Made by a program: the position numbers and the translations under genes. The notes under the pieces were generated by a model. That model saw only the letters and a list, made by a program, of their open reading frames with translations. It did no database searches and was not told where the DNA came from. Shown piece by piece: positions 1-47,733 of a stretch of 63,383 bases of DNA. Position 1 is the first letter of the stretch. Every line of letters starts with the position of its first letter. The stretch comes from Clostridia bacterium DTU065 (GTDB lineage Bacteria; Bacillota; DTU065). The stretch covers positions 1 to 63,383 of the forward strand of contig LFSI01000061.1 in assembly GCA_001512545.1 (NCBI GenBank), in the 5' to 3' direction.

Positions 1-196
1 GGAACAGATGCTTGTGCATCACGGTATTCCGGTTAGCATCTACTCCGATCGGCACTCCATTTAGATTCTCGAATTCCGAAGCAACAAATGCGAACTTACC
101 TCGGTTTCTGATAACTAGTTGCATACGTCTCTCGAACTCTTTGGGAAAGCCATCTGAGAACATGCTTGTTAAGACATATACACTCATCAAGACCAT
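1..196 (-). pseudogene. N-terminus of a probable peptidase S51/GATase-like protein, apparently disrupted near nt 65
   Basis: GGAGAAGGGA precedes ATG at 196. It reads MVLMSVYVLTSMFSDGFPKEFERRMQLVIRNRGKFAFVASEFE, then runs into the antisense of the transposase fragment. Family call is from recalled similarity only. Confidence 0.4.
2..64 (+). pseudogene. Truncated DDE transposase fragment (ISNCY/IS481-like integrase core), continuing from outside the window
   Basis: Frame starting at nt 2 reads EQMLVHHGIPVSIYSDRHSI*, resembling the 'GIPxSxYSDRHxIF' motif around the second catalytic Asp of these transposases. It stops prematurely at TAG 62-64. Confidence 0.6.
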
Positions 197-42247: not shown

Positions 42248-43024
42248 TTAGTATTTTTTCAAGAAGTCAGCTGCTTTCTTGATATCTGCCACTGGATCGG
42301 GACCTACTTCTCTTTCGATAGTGAAGTAGCCGTTGAAGCCGATCTCTTTCATCGCTGCAATGTATGCATCCCAGTCGACGTGTCCCTCACCGAGAGCCAC
42401 TTCTTGGCCTTTGCCATCAACTCTGATGCCGTCTTTAGCGTGAGTGTGGACGATATAAGGAGCGAGAACCTTTACGCCTCCCAAGTAGTCGAAGCCCTTC
42501 ATGACCAGGTTGGCGGGATCGTAGTTAACGGCGATACCCTTGGACTGCACTGCATCGAGGAAGTCCTTCATAAGCTCCGGACTTTCAGGACCGGTTTCGC
42601 TAGCCAAAAACGCACCGTGGTTTTCTGCGTATTTTGCCACTTCTTTTACAGCGTCAAGCATCATCTTGCCCTGTTCGGTTTCTCTCCAATCCTCGGGAAC
42701 AACGCCGATATGAGTGGTCATGATCGGAGCGTTCAGAGATACTGACAGGTCGATCAGGCGCTTGGTCCTTTCGACGCGCTCTTCTAGACCTTGCGGATTG
42801 GCAAACCCGCCGATATCGCCGCAGGTTGCAGAGATTTCCAGGTTATTGGACTCCAAAAGATGCAGGAGATCCTTCTTGCCGGTTTCTGTGAGGTTCTCAG
42901 GGGCAAGTTCTCCTGTTGCGATCCACAGCTGTACACCGTGGCCGCCTACCTCCTTAGCTTTCTCAAGCGACTCTTTCAGCGGAAGTCTAAACGATGTGTG
43001 AATTACGCCAATTTTTAAAGCCAT
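42248..43024 (-). CDS. Sugar phosphate isomerase/epimerase (xylose isomerase-like TIM barrel)
   Basis: SETGPE, NYDPAN, HTHAKD, LGEGHVDW, TIERE. Confidence 0.9.
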   Translation of the reverse strand: MALKIGVIHTSFRLPLKESLEKAKEVGGHGVQLWIATGELAPENLTETGKKDLLHLLESNNLEISATCGDIGGFANPQGLEERVERTKRLIDLSVSLNAPIMTTHIGVVPEDWRETEQGKMMLDAVKEVAKYAENHGAFLASETGPESPELMKDFLDAVQSKGIAVNYDPANLVMKGFDYLGGVKVLAPYIVHTHAKDGIRVDGKGQEVALGEGHVDWDAYIAAMKEIGFNGYFTIEREVGPDPVADIKKAADFLKKY

Positions 43025-43095
43025 TTTTCTCACTCCTGTAATAACGATTCTACAGTTACAGTATTACCGCATTTGGGCACAAATCCTGCTAAATA

Positions 43096-45120
43096 TCAAC
43101 CGCATCTTGAAAATCCGCAGAAAAGACAGGTCATGCAGCCGTCTTCATGCTTCATATGCCCACCGCACTCAGGGCAAGCTCCCATGGAGCTTTCAGCTAC
43201 AGTGGAGGTCTGCTTCACTACATCGGCCATCGGCAGTTTTTCCGACACCATCTCGCTGGCGTGTTCGCCATTGCCGTTTTGGCGCCAGGCAACATAGTGC
43301 TCGATGGCAAGGCCGATGGCATCTGGGCAGGAGAGAACTACTCCGTTTTCTGTCCAGGCAGGTGATGGGCAGCGAATGCCCCTCAGGTGCTTGGTGATGG
43401 CTTCGGTAGATACTCCGGCCCTCATAGCCAGGGAGATCAGCCTGCTGATGGCATCCATCTGGCTTGATGCACAACCTCCGGATTTACCCAGCCTGGCGAA
43501 TAATTCGCAGAGGCCGTTTTCGTCTTCGTTGATGGTTACATACAAACTGCCGCACCCGGTTTTGATCTTTTCAGTCCTGCCGTACGTTACGCTTGGCCGT
43601 ACCCTAGGACTGATCCTGTGGGTGTCCTCTTCCTGGGTCTTGGATTCGGTTTTCCCGGTGCTTAGAACCTGCATCTGTCTGGAACCGTCGCGATAGACGG
43701 TTACGCCTTTGCAGCCCAGCTCGAAGGCGAGTCTAAACACCTTAGCAATATCTTCCCTGGTTGCCTCTTTCGGGAAGTTAACGGTCTTACTTACGGCATT
43801 ATCCACACCGTTTTGCTGGAAGACCGCTTGCATGCGTACGTGCCATTCAGGCGTAATATCGTGAGCTGTCACGAAAACTCTTCTCCAGTGCTCGGGAATC
43901 TCTTCCATATGCTGGATGGAACCTTCTTCAGCGATTTTTTCCATCAGCTCATCTGAATAGAAGTCTTCGCGCATGGCAACTTCTCTAAAGATCGGATGAA
44001 CCTCCAGAAGCCTCTGCTCATCCAAAATCGTCCGAACAAAGGACAGTGCAAACAACGGTTCAATGCCGCTAGAGCACCCTGCAATGATGCTGATCGATCC
44101 TGTAGGTGCGATCGTCGTAGTGGTGGCATTTCTTAGAGCCTGATACTTGTCCTTGTAAATGCTCTTTTCGAAGTTGGGGAAGCTGCCCCTCTCGAGGGCG
44201 ATTGCCTGAGATCTTTCCTTTGAGCGCTTGTCGATGAAGGCCATGATCTGGGCTCCGAGATCCAGAGCTTCCTGTGAGTTGTACGGGATCTCCAACATGA
44301 ACAGCATATCTGCAAAGCCCATTACGCCGAGACCGATCTTTCTGTTGGCTTTGGCCAGCTCTTCAATCTCGGGGAGCGGATAGCGATTGACATCGATAAC
44401 GTTGTCGAGGAAGTCCACTGCCAAATCAACAACCTGCCCCAAGTCTTCCCAATCGATCTTCCCGTCTTTGACGAACTTGGAGAGGTTAATTGAACCGAGG
44501 TTGCAAGCCTCGTAGGGCAAAAGCGGCTGTTCACCGCAGGGGTTGGTGGATTCGATCTCGCCAAGTTCTGGAGTGGGATTGTCGCGATTGATTCTATCCA
44601 AAAAGACGATCCCGGGCTCTCCATTGAGCCAGGCCATCTCCACCATGAGGTCGAACACCTCTCTGGCCCTCAGCTTCTGCACGACCTTTCCGTTGCGCGG
44701 GTTGAGCAGGTCGTACTCTGTATCATGTTCTACTGCTTGCATAAATGCTTCGGTGATTCCGACGGATATATTGAAATTGGTTAGTTCAGTGTTATCGCGT
44801 TTGCAGGTGATGAACTCTAGAATATCAGGATGATCGACTCTGAGGATGCCCATGTTGGCACCTCTTCTCACGCCACCCTGCTTGATCACTTCTGTGCTCG
44901 CGTTGAAAACCTTCATGAACGATATGGGTCCGGAAGCCACGCCGCCAGTTGTCTTGACACTGTCGTTGGCTGGACGAATCCGGGAAAACGAAAAACCTGT
45001 ACCTCCACCGCTTTTGTGGATGAGAGCTGCGTTCTTGACACTTTCAAAAATGCTCTCCATTGAATCCTCAATGGGAAGTACAAAACATGCCGAAAGTTGT
45101 TGTAGTTCTCTTCCTGCATT
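43096..45120 (-). CDS. nrdJ: Class II (adenosylcobalamin) ribonucleotide reductase, exon 2
   Basis: Begins [14 protein letters not shown] immediately after the intron. Contains [42 protein letters not shown] domain and C-terminal Zn ribbon. Confidence 0.96.
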
Positions 45121-46372
45121 GTAGGGTAGGGAGTATCCCCCCCTCCGAACCGTACGTGCGAGTTTCCCCGCATACGGCTCTCTAGTCAGCTTGAATGAGT
45201 TTGAGCCTCTTTCTTATCTCCTTGGTCGAGGTCCTATACTTACACGCCAAAGTCTTCTCCAGGCTTCTTTGCAAAATGTACAGCATATCTGCTTCTTCAC
45301 TGGGTTTGGAAAGCAGTGAAAGCAGGCGTTTGAACCTCTTCTCTTCTTCTTTGTAGAAGCTGATGATTCTTTCCATTGGAAGGTTAAGTAGGCTGCTTCT
45401 GTGGATGGGCTTGCCTTCCCGCATATAAGGCCTGAGGAGTTTGGCCTTAAAAGAAGGATCCAGAGTAATTCTGCCTTTTTGCCATCTGAGACCGAGTCCT
45501 TCTAATAAAAAAGACTTAACGTCTCCGTCTGGGCTGAATCTGTAGATGCCCTCATCCCATATAAGTACTTTTTCTGTAGGGAAATACGCTTTCCAGGGTT
45601 TAAGGTAAAAAACCAAGTGCCAGAATCTACCATCGTCGATTTTCTCCTTGATCTCCAAAGGAAAGTCGGAAAGCTCTTCAGCTTTCAAGTCAACTTCCTT
45701 CAGAAAGCCCAGGATTTTGTCGGTCTTAAACTCAACCTGGTAGACTGCACCTAAAACCGCGGCCACTGCGCTTTTCAGCTCGGATAGATGCTCACTTTCT
45801 AGCATTCTGTACCTCTCAGCCTTCAGCGCATCAACGATTTCCCTGCTGTACTCCGGTTTGTAGAAATCCGGATTGTAGAGCTGCCTGTATACCCGTGTAA
45901 GAATCCTCTTCTCAGAACTCCTTCGCAGGCATTCCAAGACAACGAGGCTTTCCTGCATTACGCATACCTCCGTTTCTCAGTACCTGGCTGACCTGCTCCC
46001 CTTCGCCATTAGGACGGCGTTACCGCCTTGACTACTACGAGAGCTCCGTAAGTGGCTCTGCCACCTATCCCAAGTTCATTAGCAAACACAACGCATCATT
46101 TAGGCTCTCCGTTCGTTCTTTTCAGCACCTGTCTGGTGCCCTGTCTGGTTTCGGGAATAAAGAAAGACCGATGAACATCTTTCTTTAAAACCAGATGCTT
46201 ACGCAGATCCCCACTTGATCCAGAAGAACTAGAGTTCAAGCAATCCAGCTTTAGCCATGTGATGCTTAGCGACCTGCATGCTGTTGTCCCTTGCGGTTAG
46301 CAGGTTCACTAACAGGACGTTTCCCGAGTCCTGTACCGTTTTCGGCAGTATTTGCTAACTGTCTTGGCGCAC
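45121..46372 (-). mobile_element. Group II intron (IIA, mitochondrial-like class), 1252 nt, phase 0 in nrdJ
   Basis: 5' GTGCGCC at 46372; DV GAGCCGTATGCGGGGAAACTCGCACGTACGGTTC (45180-45147); short DVI with bulged A at -7; ends ..CCCTAC at 45121. EBS1 46173-46168 and EBS2 46215-46210 complement exon 1. Removal restores NSPTLM-NAG. Confidence 0.96.
45182..45958 (-). CDS. Streamlined intron-encoded maturase (RT-dead; NTE/RT0 and domain X retained)
   Basis: Lies in DIV after [30 protein letters not shown] (N-terminal extension), [10 protein letters not shown], and [10 protein letters not shown]...[13 protein letters not shown] (domain X) are present. No YADD, PQG or HNH. Stop abuts DV. Confidence 0.88.
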
Positions 46373-46603
46373 CATCAGAGTGGGACTATTCGGCATGAAT
46401 TTGAGACTGGTCATCAGCTCGTAGAAGCGTTCTGCTTTCTTTTTGATGTTGGCTTTCTTATCGTATAGCTTGTCCGCTTCAGCGATGTTGTACGCTACGC
46501 GATAAAACATTTCTTCAGGAGTTTCAAAGGTTCCGTCATCTTTTTTTCTCAGATAACGCTTCTCTAAAACCGTTCGGGCGTTGCTGCTTAGCTCTATTGA
46601 CAA
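46373..46603 (-). CDS. nrdJ: Class II ribonucleotide reductase, exon 1 (77 aa)
   Basis: AAAGGAGG SD then TTG 46603; NARTVLEKRYL..ETPEEMFYRVA..FMPNSPTLM, ending at the intron's GTGCG. Confidence 0.94.
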
Positions 46604-46695
46604 AAAAACTCCTCCTTTCGACACAGAAGTAGATGCTCTGTCTATATTTTCCACATTAGAGCATCTACTCCTTCTAACCTAGTTTATTCCCTTTT

Positions 46696-47733
46696 TTACC
46701 GTGCCAAAACTAGCTGAGTACCCGGATAGTAAAAGCTTAATATTTCTTTATAATCAAAACCTTCCTTTGCCATGCCGTCGGCGCCGTACTGGCTCATGCC
46801 CACTCCGTGCCCGAACCCTACCGTCTGAAAGGTGATGTAGTTGCCGTTTGCACTGACCTCAAAGGTGAAGTTGGTCGACCGCAGCCCGAGCTTTGTGCGC
46901 ACATCAACGCCTCTAACCACCGTGCTGCCGATCTGAACGAGTTCAACCCGCCCCGAGCGGTTGCGCGAAAGGATTTTAATAGGGCTTGCAGTTGGGTCGG
47001 GGTTGGACCACGGTTCAAGGAGAGTTGCAGCAGCAAAGACCTCGGGGCCTTGAGGCAAGTTCCTGGCCAAAACCAAGTTTTTTACATCCAAGCTTACTCC
47101 AAACGCCTTCTCCAGCTCTGCAATGCTTACGGTTTTTGCATCGGTGTAGCGTGGGGAATGTTTGTCGTAGGGGTTGGGTTTGGCTTTTAAATAAGGATAG
47201 TATGCGCCAAAAACCGCCGTACTGTCTTCAGTGTACGGACCTGCGGTGGAGTAGTACAGAGCTTCGATTAAGGCTCCATCGTAAACCAGGACCTCTCCTT
47301 TGGTGCTGTAAACCGCATCCCTGATCTTCTTCTCGTATTGCGCAAAGTCGTCCTGCCACTTCTGCTTGCGCTCGTCCTCCGACAACCAGGCTTGCCCTTC
47401 CTGAGGCAGGTTGGTAATGTCAGCGTTTTCCGGGTAGGGAGAACCGGTCCTGGCTATCCTTTCCAGCCGCTTGAGCGTATAAGTCCTCGCAGCTACGGCC
47501 TGGCTCTTAAGCGCTTCTGCGTGAAACGAAGCGGGCATCTCCGCAGCCACTACTCCAACCAGGTATTCTTCCAGATCCAGTTCTAAAAGGCCCTTGCCGT
47601 AGACATACAGCCGGACTTTTCTGTCCAAAAGGGCTCTTTCTTTCTTCGTTCCTACCGCCAGCACAATGCAGCAGATTAACAAGACGCCTACTGCAAACCA
47701 AACTGCAGTTAAAACGGCATTTCTCTTATCCAA
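46696..47733 (-). CDS. spoIID: Stage II sporulation protein D
   Basis: LEEYLVGVVAAEMPASFHAEALKSQAVAARTY, GFGHGVGMSQYGA. Upstream CATATTAT resembles a SigE -10. Confidence 0.93.
   Translation of the reverse strand: MDKRNAVLTAVWFAVGVLLICCIVLAVGTKKERALLDRKVRLYVYGKGLLELDLEEYLVGVVAAEMPASFHAEALKSQAVAARTYTLKRLERIARTGSPYPENADITNLPQEGQAWLSEDERKQKWQDDFAQYEKKIRDAVYSTKGEVLVYDGALIEALYYSTAGPYTEDSTAVFGAYYPYLKAKPNPYDKHSPRYTDAKTVSIAELEKAFGVSLDVKNLVLARNLPQGPEVFAAATLLEPWSNPDPTASPIKILSRNRSGRVELVQIGSTVVRGVDVRTKLGLRSTNFTFEVSANGNYITFQTVGFGHGVGMSQYGADGMAKEGFDYKEILSFYYPGTQLVLAR

Follow-up and report, generated by a model that had tools for sequence, protein, structure and literature searches.

Group II introns carry the consensus termini 5′ GUGYG and 3′ AY and a bulged adenosine in domain VI (DVI), 7–8 nucleotides from the 3′ end; in group IIA introns, the δ nucleotide next to exon-binding site 1 (EBS1) forms an additional pair with position +1 of the 3′ exon. 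The introns in the RIR and dnaN genes of Trichodesmium erythraeum are reportedly covered by Liu et al. 2003 and Meng et al. 2005, and Chee and Takami 2005 is said, by its title, to deal with a group II intron in recA of Geobacillus kaustophilus. The locus compared with these systems here is nrdJ, a ribonucleotide reductase (RNR) gene of Clostridia bacterium DTU065 (assembly GCA_001512545.1), on a stretch of 63,383 nucleotides (contig LFSI01000061.1, positions 1 to 63,383) that is referred to as the window. The gene is interrupted on the minus strand by a 1252-nucleotide group II intron (45121..46372), and it is considered highly likely that this intron is functional and vertically inherited, and that it encodes the remnant of a maturase lacking a reverse transcriptase (RT) domain. 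The genome is designated G000; its GTDB class comprises six species of one family and four genera, all known solely as metagenome-assembled genomes (MAGs).

In T. erythraeum, group II introns interrupt RIR and dnaN, and a single intron-encoded protein (IEP) is reported, in the available portions of two sources, to serve in trans as a general maturase (PMC4649490, PMC12584367). The DTU065 class resembles this system, as those portions describe it, in having introns in RNR and other replication and repair genes of a free-living bacterium, with several related introns devoid of an open reading frame (ORF) and few that carry one. The Trichodesmium helper, however, is described there as an RT expressed from a full-length intron, whereas neither of the two conserved intron ORFs of the class has an RVT_1 match; moreover, the hosts differ, a cyanobacterium in one case and uncultured Bacillota in the other, and here the interrupted genes are nrdJ, recA, and parA, with introns common to the six species of a GTDB class. 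The initial annotation of the window described RNR genes as better known for group I introns and inteins, a background to which the Trichodesmium precedent for group II introns in RNR genes has to be added (PMC4649490, PMC12584367). Judged by the title of the Geobacillus report, one intron is present in that housekeeping gene of the Bacillota, whereas recA of G000 has four.

MatK, which is encoded within the chloroplast trnK intron, provides an organellar parallel: it is an IEP of the IIA lineage that has lost RT motifs and kept domain X, it belongs to a fixed intron in an essential gene, and it is thought to serve several introns, according to the relevant parts of a 2015 review (PMC4424553). 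MatK still aligns over RT motifs 5–7, whereas the 258-amino acid protein of the nrdJ intron is bacterial and shorter, with a middle that remains unmatched. Among bacteria, the same text names O.i.I2 of Oceanobacillus iheyensis as the only degenerate IEP known as of 2015 (PMC4424553). O.i.I2 is likewise a Bacillota intron with an IEP of the mitochondrial-like (ML) class that lacks YADD, has kept its frame open, and is presumed to be maturase-only; compared by description, it differs in being apparently confined to a single genome, whereas the nrdJ ORF, from which much more of the RT is gone, has been kept across four genera. The passages of the review that bear on bacterial introns state that most of them avoid housekeeping genes, that ORF-less forms are rare, and that non-mobile derivatives seem not to persist (PMC4424553). 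A bioRxiv survey (10.1101/2021.09.28.462093) reports ORF-less introns in Firmicutes, and its supplementary tables may list related cases. A search of the full-text literature, outside supplements and most subscription journals, returned no description of the present nrdJ, recA, and parA introns or of RT-less maturases in Bacillota MAGs. As far as these sources extend, group II introns in RNR genes, the use of one IEP by several ORF-less introns, and the loss of RT with retention of domain X are known already; what is new is the combination of these features in a new lineage with long persistence.

The interrupted nrdJ gene and its ribozyme

The ORF listing of the window presents the nrdJ locus as three minus-strand pieces of 99 (46355-46654), 258 (45182-45958), and 654 amino acids (43096-45060), the first of which ends in NSPTLMVRQDS and a stop, and the last of which begins with MESIFES. 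When positions 46372-45121 are excised, a single frame of 751 residues results, starting from the TTG at 46603, 7 nucleotides past an AAGGAGG sequence. The intron lies between the codons for SPTLM and NAG, and the sequence reads CCC ACT CTG ATG/GTGCGCC at 46373/46372 and CCCTAC/AAT GCA GGA at 45121/45120. Without excision, the exon 1 frame meets a stop after five intron codons (VRQDS), and the automatically called exon 2 ORF, which starts at 45060, is left without the SAC segment; both consequences had been pointed out in the initial annotation, and the extent of the intron and the 751-residue spliced product that it proposed are borne out by the sequence and by the Rfam match described below.

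Exon 1 (46373..46603, minus strand) comprises 77 codons from TTG 46603, with the AAGGAGG ribosome-binding site (RBS) upstream, and matches Pfam Ribonuc_red_lgN (E 7.7e-24). Exon 2 (43096..45120, minus strand) comprises 674 codons plus a stop and matches Ribonuc_red_lgC (E 4e-133) and TSCPD; its best solved relative is the B12-dependent RNR of T. maritima (E 2e-127). Based on its all-alpha, barrel, and TSCPD domains, and on the lack of a class I small subunit in the genome, the nrdJ product is a predicted class II, B12-dependent RNR. Both exons are free of stops and frameshifts, and the exon 2 protein shows 90–91% identity within its N-terminal 198 residues in G004 and G005, that is, across genera.

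The continuity of the uninterrupted gene was assessed in 81 sampled genomes of the same phylum, for which the N-terminal 200 residues encoded by exon 2 served as the query. Matches were obtained in 52 genomes. The 30 loci retrieved comprise 27 of other families and 3 of the class to which the window belongs. Each of the 27 non-class loci lacks the intron and reads straight through the predicted junction, with the peptide NSPTLMNAG in 26 and NSPALSNAG in the remaining one, and the open frames of these homologs are mostly 740–800 amino acids long. NrdJ of T. maritima was dropped as a test of contiguity because a stretch of it is unaligned between the two exon matches (exon 1 aligns to residues 12–94, and exon 2 aligns from residue 127), and the phylum homologs were used instead. 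Within the class, the intron occupies the same nrdJ site in all five genomes whose fetched locus covers the 5′ junction, the orthologs measuring 1248–1267 nucleotides; in the sixth genome, the contig starts inside the intron.

The intron begins with GTGCG and ends with CTAC, and its 3′ part (45121-45182, minus strand) matches the Rfam family Intron_gpII (RF00029), a model of domain V (DV) and DVI, over the full model (1-77) with 73.9 bits against a gathering threshold of 40 (E 1.1e-12). At gathering thresholds, this is the sole RNA family found in the whole window. When the Rfam search was relaxed to E ≤ 10 over 44900-46600, the matches besides RF00029 were a plastid D5 model that stayed under its cut-off and chance matches, and no D1–D4 family was recovered. 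In the RF00029 alignment, DV (45147..45180, minus strand) spans 34 nucleotides with an AGC triad and a GAAA tetraloop, and the linker, DVI, and the 3′ end occupy 45121..45146, with the bulged adenosine at 45127, position −7, as had been proposed.

Domains I to III (DI–DIII) and the start of domain IV, which includes the RBS of the intron ORF, extend over 45959..46372 (minus strand), a stretch supported by a consensus fold and by long invariant blocks. The DI–DIII fold derived from the five orthologs contains 130 pairs, 19 of which show compensatory changes on both sides. The five ortholog introns are 80% identical overall, with the ribozyme parts in long invariant blocks and the ORF far more variable; their termini are identical in all five, and DV is unchanged except for compensatory changes in its upper stem. 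A blastn search with DI–DIII against a plasmid collection gave no match.

The last 12 nucleotides of exon 1 comprise intron-binding site 2 (IBS2, CCCACT, 46384-46379) and IBS1 (CTGATG, 46378-46373), and the sequences predicted to pair with them in the initial annotation were found as described there. EBS2 (AGTGGG; 46210..46215, intron positions 158-163, minus strand) is the complement of IBS2 and is invariant in the five orthologs. EBS1 (CATCGG; 46168..46173, from intron position 200, minus strand) is displayed in the loop of a hairpin with a AAAGAAAGA/TCTTTCTTT stem and pairs with IBS1 through five Watson–Crick pairs and one G–U pair; the enclosing stem covaries, its pairing being kept through changes in G001 and G005. 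As EBS1 reads CATCGA in two of the five orthologs, the invariant EBS1–IBS1 core is 5 base pairs long and corresponds to CATCG. A second exact 5-nucleotide complement, at intron position 109, is not taken as EBS1, given its location upstream of EBS2 and its lack of conservation in G005.

The specificity of these pairings can be seen across the six group II introns of G000. An exact 6-nucleotide Watson–Crick complement to the intron's own 5′ exon end is present within DI in five of them, the nrdJ intron with its G–U pair being the exception, and such a complement occurs in only 2 of 30 mismatched intron/exon combinations. The exon side of the pairing is constrained as well: the 15-mer that precedes the junction is identical in all five intron-bearing class genomes and is found in none of the 26 intron-less homologs with the same SPTLM peptide, which encode SPTLM by 24 different codon strings and differ from the 15-mer by 4.4 mismatches on average. 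Elsewhere in the intron-bearing class genomes, synonymous divergence is saturated, and the frozen 15-mer is the pattern that selection for IBS–EBS pairing would be expected to produce.

The U at 46174, beside EBS1, can pair with the A at position +1 of exon 2, and this pair never varies among the orthologs. The group IIA label given in the initial annotation is supported indirectly and is plausible from the lineage of the IEP, which appears to be of the LtrA type.

Splicing in RNA data and the dNTP supply

A 2-kb stretch around the intron is present in 24 listed public runs, 18 of which, from 16 studies, are on record as RNA and are mostly metatranscriptomes of biogas fermenters and anaerobic digesters. 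Four runs from four studies (X1–X4) were examined, all in the form of contigs, which drop minor forms. In X4, a 2421-nucleotide contig (depth 119.9) joins 45091-45120 directly to 46373-46750, skipping the exact 1252-nucleotide intron, with 0 differences from the window over 408 aligned letters. Another contig of the same run, 12.6 kb long and covering exon 2 (depth 176), ends precisely at 45120. The predicted ATG/AAT junction is therefore present in ligated form in one of the four runs, with 30 letters on its shorter side, and the joined contig is sound, though not conclusive, evidence that splicing takes place in vivo. As the spliced product is present in an RNA contig and the exon 1 frame is broken by the intron, making NrdJ requires splicing. 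In the favoured explanation, the nrdJ pre-mRNA would be spliced to give the 751-residue NrdJ, the intron would recognise its 5′ exon through the EBS1–IBS1 and EBS2–IBS2 pairings, and the reaction would use the canonical DV and the bulged adenosine in DVI.

The unspliced 3′ junction is represented in X4 by a contig of 86 nucleotides (depth 87.5), and a contig of 1222 nucleotides consists of intron alone (45151-46372), with a depth of 2228 versus 176 and 120 for the exon contigs. In three of the four RNA runs (X4, X1, and X3), the mean depth of contigs that consist entirely or largely of intron exceeds that of the exon contigs by a factor of 10 to 30. Contig depths are coarse, and the high-depth intron contig gives a hint that excised, stable intron RNA accumulates.

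Several observations weigh against splicing as it is read here. The joined contig is absent from X1, X2, and X3, so that the joint is seen in one run of four, an absence that is uninformative since contigs drop minor forms; in X1 and X3, the intron continues into exon 1 within unspliced contigs, and in X2 one unspliced contig spans the whole gene. The shorter side of the joint, at 30 letters, falls one below the 31-letter bridging criterion, which may reflect a k=31 unitig that was cut where the spliced and unspliced paths branch. RNA libraries can also contain DNA, and contig depths cannot rank the parts of a gene. Taken at their most adverse, these points would fit a dead intron in an nrdJ pseudogene, with a second RNR, NrdD, supplying deoxyribonucleoside triphosphates (dNTPs) and the joined contig representing intron-less DNA of another strain. 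An alternative RNR does exist, but the exons are intact and conserved across genera, the joint is seen in X4 in a contig that matches the window without a single difference, the IBS codons are frozen, the ribozyme has accumulated compensatory changes, and all class genomes carry the intron; a dead intron is accordingly regarded as extremely improbable.

The RNR complement of the genome bears equally on the question of whether splicing could control dNTP synthesis, as had been suggested in the initial annotation. G000 contains one gene with Ribonuc_red_lgC, which is nrdJ, and no class I small subunit (Ribonuc_red_sm). The search for other RNR classes revealed an intact class III NrdD on contig C23:11182-12897 (L052), with an open frame of 717 amino acids, a score of 630 bits, and a glycyl-radical domain, so that nrdJ is not the only route to dNTPs in this anaerobic-digester organism, and the overall dNTP supply need not depend on splicing. 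A regulatory gate, in which rate-limiting and controlled splicing of nrdJ would set the dNTP supply, could draw on the occurrence of both spliced and unspliced 3′ junction contigs in X4, at depths of 119.9 and 87.5, and on reports, in the available part of PMC12584367, that for some introns in bacterial housekeeping genes the expression of the host gene is modulated by splicing, and that in Trichodesmium splicing coordinates RIR with dnaN. However, with NrdD intact, with no sensor or switch element found and no sign of regulation, and with contig depths that cannot measure splicing efficiency and unspliced contigs that may come from DNA, such a gate is improbable, and the suggestion is left unsupported.

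The intron-encoded protein

The ORF within the intron (45182..45958, minus strand) encodes 258 amino acids arranged as an LtrA-like N-terminus, a divergent middle, and an X/thumb domain, and its stop codon abuts DV. In Pfam, the single sequence matches only Intron_maturas2 (residues 173–246, E 6.8e-4) with 20.1 bits, just under the cut-off of 20.8, and neither GIIM nor RVT_1 is found in it. When 1.84 billion representative proteins were searched with a profile built from the six orthologs, 169 matches were obtained at E ≤ 1e-3; two of these are close (261 and 151 amino acids), and the others mainly involve the C-terminal 90 residues and lie in IEPs of ~330–610 amino acids. The nearest full-length relatives carry RVT_1 together with Intron_maturas2.

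Among PDB sequences, the only match of the ORF profile at E ≤ 0.001 is LtrA, the IEP of Ll.LtrB (PDB 5g2x, 8h2h), with an E of 7.6e-4. The alignment is collinear, residues 1–38 of the ORF pairing with LtrA 1–41 and residues 182–243 with LtrA 414–475, so that ~370 LtrA residues between the matched segments face ~140 in the ORF. By hhalign to 12 full-length IEPs, residues 164–251 map onto the X domain with a probability of 99.6, and the middle 130 residues are without a detectable match in Pfam, in the PDB profile search, or by hhalign. LtrA, which also ranks first in the fold comparison given below, thus resembles the 258-residue protein at its N-terminus and thumb/X domain; it differs in its length of 599 residues, in its RT, DNA-binding, and endonuclease domains, and in driving retrohoming, and roughly its residues 42–413 and 476–599 have no counterpart here. 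From these comparisons, the protein is most simply described as a conserved remnant of an ML-type IEP that has kept an N-terminal segment and the maturase/thumb domain and has lost the polymerase core and everything beyond X. The assignment to the mitochondrial-like, LtrA-type lineage follows from the LtrA match and from Intron_maturas2 rather than GIIM, and the weak scores of both keep it a probable one. In the proposed scheme, the IEP would have lost the RT fingers and palm along with whatever DNA-binding or endonuclease region it once had.

In all six class genomes the ORF is open, without stops and at 49–62% identity, and the X/maturase domain is its best-conserved part; its RBS/start region is invariant in five of five orthologs. 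The dN/dS ratio (nonsynonymous to synonymous substitution rates) is 0.07–0.28 in 10 of 15 pairs, the ratio being incomputable in the other five because dS is saturated, and the least saturated pair has a dN of 0.067 and a dS of 0.327. These values indicate that the ORF is under purifying selection. In sequence terms, the combination of an X domain at a probability of 99.6, a dN/dS of 0.07–0.28, and no RVT_1 amounts to a MatK-like, maturase-only state.

The identification of the protein has its own weaknesses. The maturase call rests on weak single-sequence scores (20.1 bits in Pfam against 20.8; E 7.6e-4 in the PDB), and the AlphaFold model has a mean predicted local distance difference test (pLDDT) score of 70.8, with the highest values at residues 150–250 and values below 50 at residues 75–122. 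In a Foldseek comparison of the model with PDB structures, nothing reached E ≤ 0.001; the top rank is an LtrA chain (E 0.36, probability 0.99). RVT_1 is found nowhere in G000, but with the genome at 93% completeness and in 95 contigs, an RT gene could be missing from the assembly.

What the protein does for its host intron is a separate matter. That it is needed for splicing is somewhat favoured; it would help its own intron to fold and splice, and it may also act in trans on some of the ORF-less recA and parA introns. The contrary view is that the intron splices by itself in vivo, and that the 258-residue protein is dispensable for splicing or has been re-purposed. In favour of this view, no part of the ribozyme core is missing and its conservation is high, four of the six introns of the genome lack an ORF, and C.te.I1, an ORF-less bacterial intron, self-splices although its genome has no IEP gene at all, according to the relevant section of PMC4424553. 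Set against this are an ORF that is open in six of six genomes with a dN/dS well below 1, an X/maturase domain that is conserved best, and a start region that does not vary, and a protein-independent ribozyme is therefore considered unlikely. A maturase remnant that serves its own intron remains the preferred reading.

Distribution in the class and the other introns

A homolog of the 258-amino acid ORF is present in each of the six class genomes, and outside the class only two weak matches to it were found among 401 sampled genomes of the phylum. A search for related loci with the single ORF returned none, and with the ortholog alignment it returned five MAG loci, all labelled Bacillota or Firmicutes bacterium. 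With the same nrdJ site occupied everywhere and the ORF diverged to saturated dS, the pattern is one of vertical descent. The nrdJ intron is also unlike a mobile retroelement: there is no RT domain in its ORF or in G000, there is one full copy of it in that genome, and it occupies the same site in the class genomes. In the favoured explanation, the intron would no longer be a mobile retroelement by itself.

Retrohoming with an RT supplied in trans by another, unassembled intron would nonetheless leave the nrdJ intron mobile. This possibility gains from intron sites that are occupied in some class genomes and empty in others (recA sites a and d, nrdJ site 2) and from three RVT_1 matches in G001, the one class genome of six in which RVT_1 was found. 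In addition, lower-scoring 77-nucleotide DV/DVI matches stand at contig starts in G003 (C8, C56, and C37), G004 (C15 and C21), and G005 (C23), which suggests that these assemblies are broken by another intron family, present in several copies and probably mobile; with such introns unassembled in G003, G004, and G005, the lack of RT matches there may be an assembly effect. However, the single copy in G000, the common site in all genomes, the ORF diverged to saturation, and the absence of RVT_1 from five of the six class genomes make continued mobility very doubtful, and a fixed, vertically inherited intron is the reading retained below.

RF00029 matches occur at six places in G000, one in nrdJ, four in recA, and one in parA, the latter two genes lying outside the window. 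The recA gene (contig C31:13241-17950; L012 742-5450) is interrupted by introns of 786, 712, 1338, and 824 nucleotides after IDAEH, TGEQ, FGNPE, and ALKF, respectively, and its exon 4 is just 30 nucleotides long. Intron 3 of recA carries an ORF of 313 amino acids with a GIIM match and no RT, which is found without stops in all six class genomes at 55–62% identity. The parA/soj intron (contig C6; L013 1589-1083, minus strand) measures 507 nucleotides, is ORF-less, and splits the Walker A/P-loop motif QKGGVG/KSTT. All introns of the genome except the nrdJ intron and recA intron 3, that is, four of the six, are ORF-less.

Occupancy in the class is complete for the parA intron and the recA FGNPE site (six of six genomes each) and nearly so for the recA GEQ site (five of six), and the recA IDAEH and ALKF sites are occupied solely in the window's genus. 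Introns 1 and 2 of recA (L012 1040-1825 and 1907-2618) have a common 3′ end and a CGC in DV in place of the AGC triad, one of them begins with GTACG, and their targets are alike (GAACA[C/A]G/CA[T/C]TGA). Intron 1 was found in G000 alone among the fetched loci, the loci fetched from G001 not covering the site. These likenesses suggest that the two introns are paralogs, possibly through a late spread to a look-alike site.

The nrdJ gene itself has a second intron site, after NPCGEQ (near 44520 in the window), which is occupied in G001, G003, G004, and G005, as seen in the relatives' loci L016, L017, L019, L020, and L029, and is read through in G000 and G002; the difference could be due to precise loss or to later gain. 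In G003, the second nrdJ intron measures ~1080 nucleotides and retains only a 65-amino acid remnant of the IEP start. At the same site, G058, from another family of the phylum (L022 706-1878), has an intron with an ORF of 390 amino acids that matches Intron_maturas2 and not RVT_1, and which, by these matches, would be a second, independent degenerate IEP in nrdJ.

On this evidence, the class may have reached an organelle-like end state in a free-living bacterium, with fixed and vertically inherited introns in nrdJ, recA (up to four), and parA, mostly ORF-less and as short as 507 nucleotides, that are serviced by two RT-less maturases (those of nrdJ intron 1 and recA intron 3), the RT being unfound in most genomes; for this broader proposal, the balance is even. 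If true, it would offer a bacterial model for the step from a selfish retroelement to a host-dependent splicing system. The nrdJ case is at odds with the picture drawn in the 2015 review: in four genera, a core gene has kept a maturase-only intron that is not mobile, over a span that saturates synonymous divergence, and recA and parA contribute five further introns. The organisms are abundant in anaerobic digesters and provide a bacterial system in which intron fixation and dependence on trans-acting factors can be studied. In practical terms, standard gene callers will mis-annotate nrdJ, recA, and parA of these MAGs as fragments or pseudogenes, and such calls distort marker-gene and metabolic inferences.

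The neighbours of nrdJ in the window are ordinary-looking. Upstream lies a gene for a SpoIID-family sporulation protein (46696-47733, minus strand), and downstream lies one for a xylose-isomerase-like TIM-barrel protein (42248-43033, minus strand).

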